From IMG/VR virus record IMGVR_UViG_2711768072_000012: a stretch of DNA of 10,030 nucleotides; one strand, given 5' to 3'. Below the pieces are notes generated by a model. It saw only the letters and a program-made list of their open reading frames with translations. It ran no database searches and had not been told where the DNA came from. The position numbers and the translations under genes are program-made. This stretch comes from a virus (lineage: Duplodnaviria; Heunggongvirae; Uroviricota; Caudoviricetes). Shown here in pieces: positions 5,603 to 9,628 of the stretch. Every line of letters starts with the position of its first letter. Within the stretch, counting starts at the first letter, position 1.

Positions 5603-5628
5603 TGTCCGCTTTGTGCCAGAAGCGGACA
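5603..5628. repeat. Hairpin (arms GTCCGCTT / AAGCGGAC) upstream of the NUDIX-HAD pair
   Basis: Perfect 8-9 bp inverted repeat at 5604-5611 / 5620-5627 with an 8-nt loop. The same arm sequence recurs at 7070-7093. Confidence 0.5.
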
Positions 5629-5702
5629 TAGCAGGTGCCAGATGCATTTGTTATTCTTCATTGAATTGAGCAGTATCCTTAACAGGAACTCTAAATACAT
5701 AA

Positions 5703-6341
5703 ATGAAGATGAAAAACATGTCTGAAGTGTTGACCCAAGAAAAGCTTATTTTTGTTGCCCAGAGACTAAAGGCCCTCGCGCAGTCAGGCCTGACCTATTC
5801 AAAAGACGTCTTTGACAAGGAACGCTATGAAGCCTTGCGTGAAATTGCCGCTGGACTGCTGAGTTCGCAGTTTGATATTAGCCGCAATGATTTGTTTCAT
5901 GTATCGGAAACGGGTTACGCGACGCCCAAAACAGATGTGCGTGCGTTTATCCTGCGTAATAATCGTATTCTGATGGTGAAAGAGGCTGCAGATGGATTAT
6001 GGAGTCTTCCTGGCGGATGGGCAGATGTTGGAGATACACCTTCTGAAGCTGTGCGTCGAGAGGTCGAAGAAGAAACCGGATTAAAAGTCAGAGTGACTAA
6101 ACTATTGGGAGTTTGGGATCGTAATCTTCACGGCCATCCGCCTTTACCCTGGCATGTTTACAAGCTGATTTTTCTCTGTGAAGAAGTAGGTGGCAGCCTG
6201 TCAATCAGCCATGAGTCACTCGATGCTGATTTTTTTGATGTCAACGACCTGCCTGAATTGTCGCTTTCAAGAATTGTGCCTGAGCAGATTGCTGTCAGCC
6301 TGAGAGTAGCGAAAGGTGATGAAAAAACATGGTTTGATTAA
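5703..6341 (+). CDS. NUDIX hydrolase with N-terminal extension
   Basis: Nudix box GGWADVGDTPSEAVRREVEEETGL fits Gx5[E/D]x7REUxEExGU with D at the first acidic position. An ~80-aa N-terminal domain precedes it. Start is ambiguous between ATG 5703, 5709 and 5718; SD is weak and the upstream region is AT-rich. Confidence 0.8.
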   Translation: MKMKNMSEVLTQEKLIFVAQRLKALAQSGLTYSKDVFDKERYEALREIAAGLLSSQFDISRNDLFHVSETGYATPKTDVRAFILRNNRILMVKEAADGLWSLPGGWADVGDTPSEAVRREVEEETGLKVRVTKLLGVWDRNLHGHPPLPWHVYKLIFLCEEVGGSLSISHESLDADFFDVNDLPELSLSRIVPEQIAVSLRVAKGDEKTWFD

Positions 6342-6370
6342 CTTTCTTCTGCAACCATTAAGGAATGGCA

Positions 6371-7009
6371 ATGATATTCAACGCTAAGGGTTTTTTATTC
6401 GATATGGACGGTACGCTGGTTGATTCAACAGCCGTAGTGGAAAGCGTCTGGAGAGATTTTTGTGCAGAATACGGTCTTGATACTCAGGCTGTGATTGCTT
6501 ACGCACACGGGCGGCAAACGATTGATACACTGACGCATTTTATTGGTGCAGGTGAGAAAACCAATAAAATCGCGGCCTCACTCGAAGAGGTTGAAATCAA
6601 CACGACAGAAGGCGTTACTGAAGTAAAGGGGGCCGCTGCACTCTTATCAAAACTGCCACCGGATAGCTGGGCACTTGTCACTTCTGCAGGCAGAATGCTT
6701 GCCGAAAACAGGATGAAAGCGGCTAATCTCCCCTTACCCATAGTAATGGTGTGTGCAGAAGATGTAATGACGGGAAAACCAAGTCCCGAGGGTTACATCA
6801 AAGCAGCTTTGGCTTTGGGCCTTGAGCCTGGTGAATGCGTGGTATTTGAGGATGCATCTGCGGGTATAAAAGCAGGGCTGGCAAGTGGAGCTTCGGTAAT
6901 AGCTGTTCAGCCTGACGCTCTGGGATCATCTGAAGCCCATGCCGTCAGCGAACTGTCTGACATTATGGTCAAGATTTCCGGAGAACGTTTCAATATCATC
7001 TGTGGTTAA
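6371..7009 (+). CDS. HAD-superfamily hydrolase (beta-phosphoglucomutase/phosphatase-like)
   Basis: HAD motifs: FDMDGTLVDS (motif I), VTSAG, TGKPSPEGY (Lys motif) and FEDASAGIKAGLASGA. ATG 6371 is preferred because AAGGA at 6360-6364 gives a 6-nt spacer; the track start is 6365. Lies 23-29 nt after the NUDIX stop. Confidence 0.8.
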   Translation: MIFNAKGFLFDMDGTLVDSTAVVESVWRDFCAEYGLDTQAVIAYAHGRQTIDTLTHFIGAGEKTNKIAASLEEVEINTTEGVTEVKGAAALLSKLPPDSWALVTSAGRMLAENRMKAANLPLPIVMVCAEDVMTGKPSPEGYIKAALALGLEPGECVVFEDASAGIKAGLASGASVIAVQPDALGSSEAHAVSELSDIMVKISGERFNIICG

Positions 7010-7069
7010 TCACGTTACACAATACGCATCAATGGACGCTGAGTAGCTCGCGAGTTTTAAACTTCCAAC

Positions 7070-7093
7070 GTCCGCTTTTCGCTCAAAGCGGAC
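7070..7093. repeat. Hairpin (arms GTCCGCTTT / AAAGCGGAC) downstream of the HAD gene
   Basis: Perfect 9-bp inverted repeat with a 6-nt loop, and no U-tract. Shares its arm sequence with the hairpin at 5604-5627, and both are followed by a similar (A)TAG.AGGT tail. Confidence 0.5.
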
Positions 7094-7272
7094 TAGAAGG
7101 TTAGCTTGCGTCGGACTTGGCGTATTTAAAGAAGTGCTGGTGGTGACTGGTTGTTGTGTTCCATTTCTACAGAACAAAATCACAGAAACTATACCCAATA
7201 GTTGTATTGAATCACTGACGAGACAGCCTCATATTTATCAGGACTGGTGTACGTCCAATACAGGAGGTTGTG

Positions 7273-7362
7273 GTGCTGGTTCTCAAATGTGCGCTGGCTA
7301 TTGCTGCTGTAATGGCAATTTATTGCCTTGCTGTTGTTCTTATGGATCGCCTTTCTGATTGA
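7273..7362 (+). CDS. possible small hydrophobic peptide (~29 aa, GTG start)
   Basis: AGGAGG at 7263-7268 followed by GTG at 7270/7273. Encodes VLVLKCALAIAAVMAIYCLAVVLMDRLSD, a single predicted TM helix. The frame choice is uncertain. Confidence 0.2.
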   Translation: MLVLKCALAIAAVMAIYCLAVVLMDRLSD

Positions 7363-7398: not shown

Positions 7399-7439
7399 GG
7401 CTGCGGGTGCTTGAGGCTATCTGTCTCAGGCATGAACAC

Positions 7440-7530
7440 CAAAGGCAGATAGAGAAAAGCCCCAGTTAACATTACGCGTCCTGCAAGACGCTTAACATTA
7501 ATCTGAGGCCATATCTATGCTCTACACACG
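7440..7530 (-). ncRNA. sok: predicted Sok-like antisense RNA region (approximate bounds)
   Basis: Inferred only from hok/sok locus architecture: the antisense RNA is normally complementary to the mok leader and start. Minus strand around 7530-7560 has a weak TTGCCT-17-TAACCT promoter-like pair. Ends are not determined. Confidence 0.3.
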
Positions 7531-7729
7531 TAGGTTAGCCTCTTACGTGCCGAAAGGCAAGGAGAAGCAGGCTATGAAGCAGCAAAAGGCGATGCTAATC
7601 GCCCTGATCGTCATCTGTTTAACCGTCATTGTGACGGCACTGGTAACGAGGAAAGACCTCTGCGAGGTACGAATCCGAACCGGCCAGACGGAGGTCGCTG
7701 TCTTCACAGCTTACGAACCTGAGGAGTAA
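7517..7729 (+). CDS. mok: mok-like upstream reading frame, here in frame with hok
   Basis: ATG at 7517 opens a 70-codon frame that runs into and through hok in the same frame. The leader resembles the mok leader of hok/sok loci. Confidence 0.35.
   Translation: MLYTRRLASYVPKGKEKQAMKQQKAMLIALIVICLTVIVTALVTRKDLCEVRIRTGQTEVAVFTAYEPEE
7574..7729 (+). CDS. hok: Hok/Gef family type I toxin (51 aa)
   Basis: MKQQKAMLIALIVICLTVIVTALVTRKDLCEVRIRTGQTEVAVFTAYEPEE has the Hok TM segment and the conserved TRKxLCE...R.G..EVA.F.AYE pattern. By recollection it is closest to HokD/RelF. SD AAGGAG at 7559-7564 with a 9-nt spacer. Confidence 0.85.
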   Translation: MKQQKAMLIALIVICLTVIVTALVTRKDLCEVRIRTGQTEVAVFTAYEPEE

Positions 7730-7797
7730 GAGACCAGGCGAGGGAGAAATCCCTCGCCACCTCTGATGTGTCAGGCATCCTCAACGCACCCGCACTT

Positions 7798-7820
7798 AAC
7801 CCGCTTCGGCGGGTTTTTTA
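7798..7820 (+). terminator. intrinsic terminator (UUCG tetraloop hairpin + T6) ending the hok transcript
   Basis: TAACCCGCTTCGGCGGGTTTTTT: stem CCCGC/GCGGG, extendable to 7 bp, with a TTCG loop and six Ts. Confidence 0.7.
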
Positions 7821-7867
7821 TTGGTTGACAAAATTATGAATATGCACCAATATCTTGGTTGACAAAA
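7821..7867 (+). promoter_or_regulatory. Two direct copies of TTGGTTGACAAAA (each containing a TTGACA -35 hexamer): candidate promoter/operator of the downstream cassette
   Basis: Identical 13-mers at 7821-7833 and 7855-7867, 34 bp apart, between the hok terminator and the first cassette gene. Confidence 0.4.
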
Positions 7868-7902
7868 GTCGTTTTTTGCACGGATTAGGCGGAGAAGTGT
7901 CT

Positions 7903-8496
7903 ATGCAGAACCATCCATTCCCTTGGGAGTTCTTTCCTGAGTTAACAGAGGAGCGTTTAACCATTATAGCTGAGGAGTTGCTCAGGATACAGGATATTAC
8001 TCATGAGTTATTGTCATCGCCCTATGATGATAATTACACTCGTGGTGGTTGTACATTTGGGCGTCAGCGGCAGGCGTTGCTACAAATGTGCGTACGAAAG
8101 ACATATGACTGGTTAAGACTACTTAATCCTGGCATGGATCTTACGTTTTCAATTGGGAATGTCCCTATTCGTTTCTTTACTGATGACGCAGATAACCCCA
8201 AGAAACGCGGTTTTTTCAAAAGAAATGATGCTGATCGACTCTTTGAGTCAGAGGAGACTACTCCAACTATGCATCGCTTTGTGGTTGAAAAGCCTGAATT
8301 TGAAGGCGAGGGTGGTAGAGTCATTTTTAATGGCTATAACGTGTTTGGTGAGATCGTGTCAACTTGGACATATGGTGCGGACCGTGTTGTTATGCTGAAC
8401 TCTGTCGATGATGTACCTCCAGCACCGGTACCTATCGAACTAGAACCTATCAGTGCGTCTAAGACTGAGAAGGAAAAGAAACAAAATAGCAAATAG
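7903..8496 (+). CDS. uncharacterised protein (~197 aa), upstream partner of the HTH-peptidase; candidate effector/toxin
   Basis: ATG at 7903 with GGAG at 7891-7894 (8-nt spacer); the track's 7855 start is TTG inside the repeat. Acidic, no TM segment, no catalytic motif recognised, with a Pro/Lys-rich tail. Stop lies 10 nt before the next gene. Confidence 0.65.
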   Translation: MQNHPFPWEFFPELTEERLTIIAEELLRIQDITHELLSSPYDDNYTRGGCTFGRQRQALLQMCVRKTYDWLRLLNPGMDLTFSIGNVPIRFFTDDADNPKKRGFFKRNDADRLFESEETTPTMHRFVVEKPEFEGEGGRVIFNGYNVFGEIVSTWTYGADRVVMLNSVDDVPPAPVPIELEPISASKTEKEKKQNSK

Positions 8497-8506
8497 TGGG
8501 TGAAAT

Positions 8507-9628
8507 GTGTTTAACGGTACTAATTTAAGACTTGCTCGTCTGTATCACGAGCTATCTCTGGAGCAGGTTGCTGAGAAGGTTGAAAAAACACGCCAGTATG
8601 TACAGCGACTGGAGTCTGGTTCAGCTACTCCATCCCCAGAGCTTATAAATAAATTAGCCGAGGTTTTGCGCGTGAAGCCCGCCTTTTTCGAAGGGCAGGA
8701 ACATTCTCCTGTTAATGAAGAGATTGTACATTTTCGTAAACGCGCCTCGACAAGGATGTCAACGAAGCTATCAACACTCGCTAAGGCTGAGTTTTATCGT
8801 CGTTTTATTGATGTATTTGAAGATAACCTTAATTTGTCACCTGTTCGATTTCCTGAATTTCGTGTCCATACACAAGAAGATATCGAGCGAGCGGCAGAAA
8901 AATGTCGTATTGAGTGGGGCTTAGGCTTTGGCCCAATTGAAAATATGACTCGCCTTGCCGAGAAACTTGGGGCGTTTGTTACTTCATTTGACTCCGTTTC
9001 GGATGAAGTAGATGCACTGTCTGTTCCTCTGCGAAGGCCTTTTATTGTTCGAAATACAGCTAAAAATTCACCTTGTAGGCAACGCTTTGATATTGCTCAT
9101 GAGGTTGCCCATTTGATTCTTCATGAAGGAATTTCTACTGGGGATAGATTAACTGAATCCCAGGCAAACCGTTTTGCCTCTGCTCTGTTGCTTCCCAGAA
9201 CGTCGATGGCGAAATATTTTCCAAGACCTGTGGGGGGGAGGATAAATTGGCAGGGACTAAGCCAATTTAAGTTGACATGGAAAGTAAGTAAGGCTGCCAT
9301 TGTTTACAGGGCTCATCAATTAGGACTTTTGACTGATGAGCAGTACAGAACTGCATTTATGGGGTTGAAACGGAAAGGGGAAGCTATTGATGAAAAAGAA
9401 GATTATCTAATCCCTCATGAGCGTCCTGAGTTATTCCGTCGGGCTTTATCGTTTTTATTTGAAGAGTTAGGATACGACCCACAGCGTATAGCTGATGAAA
9501 TGGATATAGAAGTGGACATTTTTTATGAGTTAGTAGGAGATGATCTTCCTGCGGTTCATGAACTGCCAGGAAGTGGTGATGTTGTTTCACTACAATCTTA
9601 CCGAACTCTTAGAGGCAAAATTCACTAG
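8507..9628 (+). CDS. XRE-family HTH fused to ImmA/IrrE-type (M78, COG2856-like) zinc metallopeptidase (373 aa)
   Basis: N-terminal HTH (LSLEQVAEKVEKTRQYVQRLESGSATPSPELINKLAEVL). Zinc-binding HEVAH in IAHEVAHLILHE followed by ESQANRFASALLLP, the typical ImmA/IrrE signature. GTG start at 8507 with GGGTG upstream. Confidence 0.85.
   Translation: MFNGTNLRLARLYHELSLEQVAEKVEKTRQYVQRLESGSATPSPELINKLAEVLRVKPAFFEGQEHSPVNEEIVHFRKRASTRMSTKLSTLAKAEFYRRFIDVFEDNLNLSPVRFPEFRVHTQEDIERAAEKCRIEWGLGFGPIENMTRLAEKLGAFVTSFDSVSDEVDALSVPLRRPFIVRNTAKNSPCRQRFDIAHEVAHLILHEGISTGDRLTESQANRFASALLLPRTSMAKYFPRPVGGRINWQGLSQFKLTWKVSKAAIVYRAHQLGLLTDEQYRTAFMGLKRKGEAIDEKEDYLIPHERPELFRRALSFLFEELGYDPQRIADEMDIEVDIFYELVGDDLPAVHELPGSGDVVSLQSYRTLRGKIH

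Follow-up and report, generated by a model that had tools for sequence, protein, structure and literature searches.

A Nudix–HAD phosphatase gene pair of chromosomal origin as palindrome-bordered cargo in P2-like and lambdoid prophages

What does a prophage carry when a Nudix hydrolase gene is placed directly beside a HAD phosphatase gene? The window, a 10,030-nt stretch of Caudoviricetes DNA (IMG/VR record IMGVR_UViG_2711768072_000012), contains such a pair as two intact, adjacent open reading frames on the same strand (Nudix, 5703–6341; HAD, 6365–7009; both +). A replication module lies on one side of the pair and hok/sok on the other: O-like, DnaC/IstB-like, DUF1627 and DUF977 genes are located 5′ of it, and hok (Pfam HOK_GEF) and sok (Rfam, 114.7 bits) 3′ of it. 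A RosmerTA system found in a PADLOC search also adjoins the cassette, besides hok/sok. The features of the cassette are as follows.

5604..5627, no strand: left border palindrome GTCCGCTTtgtgccagAAGCGGAC, at the joint between lambdoid backbone and cargo (homology breakpoints)
5703..6341, + strand: predicted Nudix hydrolase gene, CDP-Chase/UDP-Xase subfamily (Pfam, PDB matches, motifs, AF2 and Foldseek)
6365..7009, + strand: predicted HAD-IA (C1-cap) phosphatase gene, HxpA/YfbT-like (Pfam, NCBIfam, motifs, AF2 and Foldseek)
7070..7093, no strand: right border palindrome GTCCGCTTTtcgctcAAAGCGGAC, where the 'right inverted repeat' annotated in P2 Z regions starts
5604..7093, + strand: whole mobile cassette, consisting of palindrome, Nudix, 29-nt spacer, HAD and palindrome (identity to P24C9/10W)

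The initial annotation had described adjacent, co-oriented Nudix and HAD genes between the replication module and hok, and this arrangement was confirmed, with the catalytic motifs of both proteins intact. Its description of the Shine-Dalgarno sequences as weak applies to the Nudix gene but not to the HAD gene, which is preceded by a good one (AAGGAA, 6360–6365), and the AT-richer block that it reported is only modestly so (46.6% GC in the cassette, compared with 48.7% in the left backbone and 45.5% in the right flank). Homologues and RefSeq annotation indicate that translation probably begins at ATG 5718 for Nudix, giving 207 aa, and at ATG 6371 for HAD, giving 212 aa. No sigma-70 promoter at or above the scan threshold was found in 5628–5702, and no consensus one was found upstream. 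An intrinsic terminator belonging to the cassette was considered and rejected, as the left palindrome has no T-tract, and a riboswitch or known RNA element upstream of or within the cassette was likewise rejected, Rfam at permissive thresholds having returned sok only. Downstream of the cassette, the same permissive search gave a sub-threshold isrK-like match.

The Nudix open reading frame encodes a Nudix_N domain (PF12535; residues 14–61, E 7.6e-18) followed by a NUDIX domain (PF00293; 77–184, E 7.9e-19). The catalytic motif of its Nudix box, GWADVGDTPSEAVRREVEEETGL at residues 105–127, is intact, and position 7 is D in place of the canonical E, as is usual in the CDP-Chase/UDP-Xase subfamily. 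The variant box of that subfamily, G-Xar-Xsm-[E/D]-U-X2-[S/T]-X2-E-X3-K-E-U-X-E-E-X-G-U, has been published together with an HLH motif, G-U-X-Xar-X2-D-X-Xar-D-X-[E/D]-R-Xar, a YXTP hinge and an LPXLS motif (Duong-Ly et al., 2013). All four are found in the window protein: GWADVGDTPSEAVRREVEEETGL fits the variant box except for a conservative K→R change at position 15, the HLH motif is GLTYSKDVFDKERY (29–42), the hinge is YATP (72–75) and the last motif is LPELS (183–187). The 212-aa open reading frame, or 207 aa counted from M6, also agrees with the subfamily in size (200–210 aa) and in its Nudix_N plus Nudix domains. Phmmer searches of the PDB matched CDP-Chase (3Q1P/6NCH, E 7e-50), 3O8S (E 4e-42) and UDP-Xase (4HFQ, E 2e-37). 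The AF2 model has three N-terminal helices and a Nudix fold, and Foldseek ranks 1–6 are CDP-Chase and UDP-Xase structures aligned over full length (201–205 columns). We conclude, on the strength of profile, motif and predicted-structure matches, that the Nudix protein is a member of the CDP-Chase/UDP-Xase subfamily.

Identity to the window protein is ∼50% for Bacillus cereus CDP-Chase (3Q1P, 3Q4I, 6NCH, 6NCI) and 36–40% for the Streptococcus pneumoniae UDP-X diphosphatase SP_1669 (4HFQ), and the two-domain architecture, the length of ∼207 aa and the signature motifs are common to all three. The window protein differs from both in having R instead of K at box position 15 and in its HAD phosphatase partner. 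It also belongs to a Gram-negative host or its phage, whereas the family was described as Gram-positive only (Duong-Ly et al., 2013). Characterized members form asymmetric homodimers with CDP-choline or UDP-X pyrophosphatase activity and 3′→5′ RNA exonuclease activity (Duong-Ly et al., 2013). UDP-Xase cleaves UDP-glucose and Mur-pathway intermediates, and ADP-ribose is merely a 'suboptimal' substrate of CDP-Chase; the activities measured in the subfamily are all weak (kcat/Km ≤ about 3×10^3 M-1 s-1).

The HAD open reading frame matches Pfam HAD_2 (E 5.4e-22). The features that define HAD-IA enzymes (motifs I DxDGT, II S/T, III K and IV E/D-D, and a C1 helical cap) are all present: the catalytic motifs are intact as DMDGT (11–15), LVTS (102–105), GKPSP (135–139) and FEDA (159–162), numbered such that D11 is D13 of the 214-aa open reading frame, and the AF2 model (pLDDT 94) has a helical cap at residues 20–77. 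The top Foldseek match was yeast glycerol-3-phosphatase (2QLT, TM 0.85), and the matches are HAD-IA enzymes of polyol/sugar-phosphate types. The best NCBIfam model was the YfbT sugar phosphatase, and E. coli K-12 HxpA (YfbT) is 49% identical over 183 residues. Both HxpA and yeast Gpp1/Rhr2 (2QLT) have the HAD-IA fold, the C1 cap and the four motifs in common with the window protein, but its C-terminal 30 residues differ. Because it scores 189.3 bits against the HxpA/YfbT equivalog NF008610, below the curated cutoff of 282, the window protein is an HxpA paralogue or xenologue. These comparisons identify it as an HxpA-like HAD-IA phosphatase, related to HxpA but a distinct enzyme. Profile and structure searches, which the initial annotation had proposed, thus placed both proteins in subfamilies.

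The borders of the cassette are two 24-nt palindromes of the pattern GTCCGCTT-N6-8-AAGCGGAC, of which the window contains two copies where none is expected. At the left palindrome, homology to P2 and chromosomal copies begins and homology to cassette-less lambdoid backbones stops. In the P2 Z-region annotation, the same palindrome forms the inner end of the 'left inverted repeat'. Nilsson and colleagues are said to have described, in 2004, P2 Z-region (Z/fun) cargo located between left and right inverted repeats. Such repeats are annotated in GenBank AJ512676-82, and the palindromes match their inner ends in AJ512676, AJ512681 and AJ512682. Peduovirus P24C9 and phage 10W carry exactly the span 5604–7093, at 99.3% identity, between genes G and FI and with inverted-repeat borders, as is characteristic of P2 Z-region cargo. 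An E. coli prophage remnant also has this span, as does an integrase island. The cassette occupies slots in two unrelated E. coli prophage types, the P2 Z region and the lambdoid DUF977|hok interval, and sequence comparison indicates that it is delimited by the palindromes and has moved between phage slots. Its place in these variable slots bears out the earlier description of the pair as accessory prophage cargo.

Compared with P2 Z-region cargo as described, the cargo here is a metabolic-type enzyme pair, and the Z-region palindromes are found as well at the edges of the DUF977|hok slot in Rac/Qin-type lambdoid prophages and around a chromosomal Nudix gene; in the latter (L095/L096, enterobacterial chromosome) they surround Nudix alone. 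The palindromes were also considered as private ends of a Nudix–HAD transposable unit; this was rejected, as lambdoid and P2 backbones without the cassette already bear them. The validated defence gene PD-T7-3 and the defence candidate PDC-S39 occupy the same repeat-bounded slots, and in our sample the lambdoid slot is most often occupied by the tRNA-modification enzyme QueH. No NUDIX+HAD arrangement appears in the examined parts of the hotspot tables of Rousset et al. (2022), which cover the other P2 hotspot (A-Q) and P4. A class of palindromes found at 1513-bp spacing in viral contigs was rejected as unrelated GC-rich DNA.

A search of 5,426 E. coli genomes gave 19 full copies of the cassette and three partial ones, in about 20 genomes, although its DUF977 flank is present in 4,105 of the 5,426. 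Among 50,697 phage records, three carry the cassette, all in one P2-like lineage; it was found in none of the virulent phages in that set and in no plasmid. A lone Nudix homologue is present on a Pantoea plasmid. The reading frames are intact and 97–100% identical in several different mobile elements. Other copies have decayed: the cassette is pseudogenised in phage 11W, HAD is truncated in copies H20 and H21, and Nudix has been removed by IS3 in H22. The cassette is a real, rare and ordinary piece of moron cargo.

Nudix followed by HAD, with spacers of 26–29 nt, occurs in the phages and in four non-phage contexts (L100, L219, L220 and L097/098), five in all. Divergence is matched between the genes (Nudix 90/80% vs HAD 85/72%), their dS values rise and fall together from one locus pair to the next, and dN/dS across the five contexts is 0.05–0.17 in both genes, as under purifying selection. 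The chromosomal pairs are surrounded by AraC/LysR regulators, GGACT, MFS transporters, dehydrogenases and an epimerase, and no defence neighbourhoods were found there. One independent HAD–Nudix adjacency was found in a Bacteroidota genome (L074). The coupling is not obligatory, because relatives of either gene mostly lack the partner: none of 21 Enterobacterales Nudix loci has a HAD partner, and HAD relatives with 69% identity or less are without Nudix. No donor species emerged from flank synteny, none being shared with 21 representative Enterobacterales loci. Taken together, these data show co-inheritance of the pair under purifying selection and a chromosomal enterobacterial origin that predates its residence in phages. 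The initial annotation had named a lack of co-conservation, or resemblance to ordinary chromosomal paralogs, as grounds for abandoning its reading, and these grounds were half borne out: the two genes are kept together, but only within a narrow clade, and both proteins are xenologues of ordinary chromosomal enzymes (HAD, 49% identical to HxpA; Nudix, 60–72% identical to chromosomal genes in many Enterobacterales).

We consider it somewhat more probable than its negation that the cassette is a chromosomal enterobacterial operon carried as moron cargo, which would break down an NDP-linked compound in two steps and be exchanged between slots via the palindromes. The Nudix enzyme would cleave the compound (NDP-X) to NMP and X-phosphate, the most plausible NDP-X being an alcohol, polyol or sugar activated by a pyrimidine nucleotide, and the HAD enzyme, as a polyol/sugar-phosphate phosphatase, would strip the phosphate to leave X and make the breakdown irreversible. 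The cassette would shift slot by recombination at the short REP-like palindromes that border P2-like and Rac/Qin-type lambdoid cargo slots. Since the genes diverge as a unit, in the same order and at 26–29 nt spacing, with dS of one tracking that of the other, NDP-X → X-P → X is the likeliest reading, and the two reactions are probably coupled in sequence. The same logic, by analogy, operates in the folate pathway, in which NudB acts before a phosphatase, and in the conversion of prenyl diphosphates to alcohols: Nudix leaves a monophosphate ester and a separate phosphatase removes the phosphate. The resemblance does not extend to membership at the sequence level, as the window proteins score far under the NCBIfam cutoffs for NudB and the other families. 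The likely substrate class, NDP-polyol/sugar, is an extrapolation because the substrates of the subfamily lack convincing kinetics. In the phage, the pair is probably a passenger that is seldom retained and whose effect is of a housekeeping type (metabolite clean-up or salvage), with no dedicated conflict function. The two-step degradation suggested by the initial annotation thus remains the natural reading of a pair that behaves as a unit; ADP-ribose as its substrate finds no support, given that the nearest characterized enzymes are CDP-choline and UDP-X pyrophosphatases. A role specific to phages is likewise unsupported, as the pair predates phage residence and lies in ordinary chromosomal neighbourhoods; it is also absent from virulent phages and from almost all phage records, and has decayed copies.

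An alternative is that the enzymes share no pathway and were co-transferred as unrelated neighbours between two recombination-prone palindromes. Each gene usually occurs without the other, the L095/L096 palindromes flank Nudix only, and the Nudix subfamily has no informative conserved neighbour in 85 loci, where the top cluster is generic LysR regulators (8/85). We nevertheless regard this as unlikely in view of the fixed order and spacer in five genomic contexts, the matched dS and purifying selection on both genes, and the independent adjacency in Bacteroidota. It is also conceivable that the prophage pair serves in conflict, irreversibly destroying a nucleotide-linked molecule and so altering infection by other phages or host defence; the target could be either a pyrophosphate-containing immune messenger derived from ADPR, or an NDP-sugar or NDP-polyol that a phage receptor or phage DNA modification requires. 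The intact frames in several elements, together with PD-T7-3 and PDC-S39 in the same slots, mean that the pair may confer a conflict-related benefit, although we hold such a module to be distinctly improbable.

Exclusion or lysogenic conversion would have the lysogen's pair drain a nucleotide-activated sugar or polyol (e.g., UDP-glucose, UDP-GlcNAc/MurNAc or CDP-polyol), such that surface receptors are altered or incoming phages are starved of a precursor, for example for T-even DNA glucosylation. The cassette does lie in the P2 Z region, home of P2's own exclusion gene Z/fun, its slots also take PD-T7-3 and PDC-S39, hok/sok and RosmerTA adjoin it in the window, and the related UDP-Xase acts on suitable compounds. 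In PADLOC-DB 2.0, Nudix weakly matches the candidate PDC-S07, but the match is a generic domain-level one (36.8 bits) that falls short of a defence model, and HAD has no match. With QueH, no defence gene, as the commonest lambdoid occupant, non-defence neighbourhoods around the chromosomal copies, and a cassette that is rare and at times decayed, we judge exclusion or conversion distinctly improbable. Counter-defence, in which the pair would destroy an ADP-ribose-derived or pyrophosphate immune messenger (Thoeris-type) during lytic growth or clear ADPR made by NADases, appears very improbable. CDP-Chase can hydrolyse ADP-ribose, though suboptimally, HxpA-type HADs could plausibly dephosphorylate ribose-5-phosphate, and the genes run in the same direction as the early rightward operon in the lambdoid setting. 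However, the pair arose in non-phage chromosomal contexts, virulent phages lack it, with one P2-like lineage alone carrying it among the 50,697 records, and a Nudix enzyme would find no pyrophosphate bond to cleave in cyclic oligonucleotide signals. We found no literature link between the pair and immune signalling, and the interference with such signalling raised by the initial annotation gains no support from the generic Nudix match, the only one in defence models. The known route NARP3 consists of a PnuC transporter and a NadR-like enzyme, unrelated to the pair, and NARP-type NAD+ reconstitution was rejected: Pfam and NCBIfam give NUDIX and HAD families only, with no homology to NARP1–3 (Adps/Namat; Nampt/Nmnat; PnuC/NadR-like), and the NARP1 and NARP2 enzymes, as judged from their descriptions, are neither Nudix_N nor HAD-IA.

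As it stands, the finding is of little import, adding one more enzyme-type moron to temperate-phage slots already known as variable, with both protein families described. The favoured reading as an NDP-X degradation operon would supply a natural partner for CDP-Chase/UDP-Xase Nudix enzymes; the phosphatase narrows the substrate search to NDP-linked polyols and sugars and offers a coupled assay. Were the pair a conflict module, prophage-encoded exclusion or counter-defence would gain a new enzymatic class, one that travels between P2-like and lambdoid phages via shared palindromic borders. The palindromes are common to cargo borders in P2-like phages, Rac/Qin-type lambdoid prophages and a chromosome, and breakpoints lie at or within them; this points to a shared cargo-swapping route between unrelated phage families, including for validated defence genes such as PD-T7-3.

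The cassette consists of two adjacent genes enclosed by border palindromes, and it is followed by a toxin-antitoxin locus and a defence system:

5604-5627: left border palindrome, 24 nt, start of the shared unit
5703-6341 (+): ORF1, Nudix hydrolase gene, Pfam Nudix_N (PF12535) and NUDIX
6365-7009 (+): ORF2, HAD phosphatase gene, Pfam HAD_2/Hydrolase
7070-7093: right border palindrome, related to the left one, end of the shared unit
7405-7729: complete hok/sok locus (sok, Rfam 114.7 bits at 7405-7579; hok ORF 7517-7729, Pfam HOK_GEF)
7855-8496 and 8507-9628 (+): RosmerTA, a toxin-antitoxin-type defence system, directly downstream of hok

Motif inspection found the catalytic motifs complete in both ORFs: the Nudix box of ORF1 is GWADVGDTPSEAVRREVEEETGL, and ORF2 contains the HAD motifs DMDGT, LVTS, GKPSP, and FEDA. 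The likely starts are ATG 5718 for the Nudix gene and ATG 6371 for the HAD gene. Genes for an O-like replication protein, a DnaC/IstB-like ATPase, DUF1627, and DUF977 lie 5' of the pair and hok/sok lies 3', bearing out the initial annotation, which had recognized co-oriented Nudix and HAD genes by their motifs and placed them between the replication module and hok. The AT-richer block it described is present, though modest (46.6% GC vs flanks of 48.7% and 45.5%), and the weak Shine-Dalgarno (SD) sequences it assigned to the pair do not extend to the HAD gene, whose SD is good (AAGGAA). Upstream of the Nudix gene, the SD GAAGGTGA of the chromosomal locus L100 (455-475) is GAAGATGA in the phage copy (window 5700-5720), a change that weakens the SD and supplies additional in-frame upstream ATGs (5703, 5709).

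The Nudix and HAD genes form a unit that is restricted to a narrow clade. Closer metagenome relatives with the pair have the same gene order and spacers of 26-29 nt. In L100 and L219 (Nudix ∼90%, HAD 84-85% identity) the pair is preceded by genes for GGACT and an AraC regulator, an epimerase and a dehydrogenase adjoin it in L220 (HAD 90%), and L097/L098 (Nudix 80%, HAD 72%) carry it in an integrase island. Ordinary chromosomal neighbourhoods indicate that the pair is older than its phage residence. At the loci with both genes, Nudix has a dN/dS of 0.05-0.16 and HAD one of 0.07-0.17, and dS in one gene follows dS in the other from locus to locus. Fixed order and spacing, matched dS, and low dN/dS argue for a co-inherited operon under selection. 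Co-conservation ends outside the clade: HAD relatives at ≤69% identity are without Nudix, and a survey of 6 kb around the Nudix homologues (43-72% identity) of 80 chromosomal loci encountered no HAD at any of the 21 Enterobacterales loci included. Nudix genes at L095/L096 and L099 (81-83%) also stand without HAD. The sole adjacency in that survey was in an Adhaeribacter sp. MAG (Bacteroidota; L074 4762-6071), where a HAD gene of an unrelated lineage (28% identity to the window's) lies 81 nt upstream of Nudix (46%); this HAD-then-Nudix arrangement may represent a separate, second origin of the same pairing.

The Nudix protein belongs to the CDP-Chase/UDP-Xase subfamily, on which sequence, motifs, and structure agree. 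Its best full-length solved relative is Bacillus cereus CDP-Chase (3Q1P/6NCH, E 7e-50, ∼50% identity), followed by Streptococcus suis 3O8S (E 4e-42) and the S. pneumoniae UDP-X diphosphatase 4HFQ (E 2e-37), and the top Foldseek matches of its AlphaFold model (pLDDT 79.6) are the same structures over ∼205 columns. The features that define the subfamily (200-210 aa, HLH motif, YXTP hinge, LPXLS, and a variant Nudix box; Duong-Ly et al., 2013) are all found, with a single conservative K-to-R change. Known activities are weak and promiscuous: CDP-choline is a substrate, ADP-ribose is 'suboptimal', UDP-MurNAc(-Ala) and UDP-glucose are cleaved with mM Km and kcat/Km ≤2.9x10^3 (Duong-Ly et al., 2013), and values for Np5N are <3x10^3, in a study whose authors were themselves unsure that the true substrate had been found. 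Relatives in Enterobacterales, Nostoc (cyanobacteria), Chloroflexi, Planctomycetes, Bacteroidota, Acidobacteria, and Legionella (L024-L082) show that the restriction to Gram-positive bacteria stated in 2013 (Duong-Ly et al., 2013) is wrong.

The best NCBIfam model for the HAD protein is the YfbT/HxpA sugar phosphatase (189 bits, under the equivalog cutoff of 282), and identity to Escherichia coli K-12 HxpA is 49%. Its structural model (pLDDT 94) is nearest to yeast glycerol-3-phosphatase Gpp1/Rhr2 (TM 0.85), with mannitol-1-phosphate phosphatase, beta-phosphoglucomutase, and HxpB-type enzymes next. The HxpA similarity and the Gpp1/Rhr2-like fold place it among the C1-cap HAD-IA phosphatases of the polyol/sugar-phosphate type and make it the xenologue of a housekeeping enzyme.

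The proposal that the pair is prophage cargo agrees with its distribution. The full cassette occurs in 19 of 5,426 E. coli genomes and partially in 3 more; the DUF977 flank is found in 4,105 of them, at 6,581 places. Copies reside between DUF977 and hokD of Rac/Qin-type lambdoid prophages and in a prophage remnant adjoining pao; a copy in an integrase island has a truncated HAD gene, and one copy lost its Nudix gene to IS3. Identical copies are present on 12 IMG/VR contigs. Peduovirus P24C9 and phage 10W carry the 1.49-kb cassette, 99.3% identical, between tail genes G and FI, the P2 Z region, which is one of three loci for acquired genes in P2-like phages. At the same locus, the P2-like Escherichia phage 11W (L234 2501-3841), from E. 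coli lysogens, contains a pseudogenised cassette (fragments of 53-60% protein identity with frame changes), implying that the cargo is dispensable for the phage. A protein-level search found this Nudix in 3 of 50,697 phage records, and a plasmid search found no plasmid carrying the pair.

The palindromes share the pattern GTCCGCTT-N6-8-AAGCGGAC, with two matches in the window vs zero expected by chance; loci with this palindrome are the window, L238, L235, L001, L095, and L241-L243. Homology between contexts breaks at palindrome edges or mid-palindrome. The palindromes are not private to the cassette: lambdoid backbones without it retain the left one whole (L238) or half (L235), and P2-like phages generally match after gene G only up to or through it. 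In GenBank AJ512676/81/82 ('proviral Z-region'), the annotated 'left inverted repeat' terminates with the cassette's left palindrome and the 'right inverted repeat' opens with the right-hand one. These records appear to stem from Nilsson et al. (2004). Together, the homology breaks and the match to Z-region repeats identify the palindromes as recombination joints of cargo slots. This role appears to be already known in P2; the present analysis adds the same palindromes at the lambdoid slot and around a Nudix gene on a chromosome (L095/L096). Breakpoints at or within a common palindrome suggest a cargo-swapping route shared by unrelated phage families. An unrelated viral contig contains tandem arrays of similar palindromes, a REP-like behaviour.

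Other slot occupants are mixed. Six sampled lambdoid prophages carry QueH (four), a DUF4209 protein (one), or an alpha/beta-hydrolase (one) between DUF977 and hokD; QueH, an epoxyqueuosine reductase of tRNA modification, is thus the commonest cargo in this sample (L235, L236, L237, L239). The DUF4209 protein (L238 4624-6411, -) matches the PADLOC candidate PDC-S39 (E 4e-102), and Z-region ORF1 of P2-EC30 (L243 364-1779) matches the validated defence gene PD-T7-3 (E 3.5e-168), both bounded by the same repeats as the cassette; the remaining slot cargo had no PADLOC match.

We somewhat favor a two-step NDP-X breakdown operon of chromosomal origin that occupies repeat-bounded phage slots as a rare passenger. 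The Nudix enzyme would cleave NDP-X to NMP and X-phosphate, and the HAD enzyme would then dephosphorylate X-phosphate to X and Pi. Co-inheritance of the genes under selection supports such sequential action, as the initial annotation had supposed. That Nudix and HAD are mere neighbours with no common pathway is unlikely, since their dS values co-track, order and spacing are fixed, and dN/dS is low. Prophage exclusion through draining of an NDP-sugar or polyol is a rather improbable alternative; PD-T7-3 and PDC-S39 occupy like slots, and with cargo this mixed, position by itself is no proof that the pair is a defence system. Least probable is degradation of ADPR-type immune signals, and the suggested link to immune signalling gained no support. 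Against defence-system models the pair gave nothing except a generic 36.8-bit Nudix-domain match, and searches of the literature turned up no work on the pair, nor any on a role of Nudix_N-type Nudix proteins in defence against phages or in counter-defence. NARP3 was considered as a related system and rejected as unrelated.

Downstream of the cassette, PADLOC identified RmrT (E 7e-93) and RmrA (HTH and M78 peptidase, E 4e-201) of RosmerTA. Related prophages (e.g., L002, L228) have rem, a hypothetical gene, or DUF968 at this position, so RosmerTA is a second piece of cargo inserted into the prophage arm that holds the cassette. A sub-threshold Rfam match to the Hfq-binding sRNA isrK (7738-7819, +; 31.2 bits vs gathering score 50, E 2.7e-4) has its end at a hairpin (7798-7815) that, with the T-run after it, resembles a strong terminator. 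An unannotated cysteine-rich 74-aa ORF (7134-7358, +; …CAGYCCCNGNLLPCCCSYGSPF) in the interval from the cassette to hok is probably spurious.
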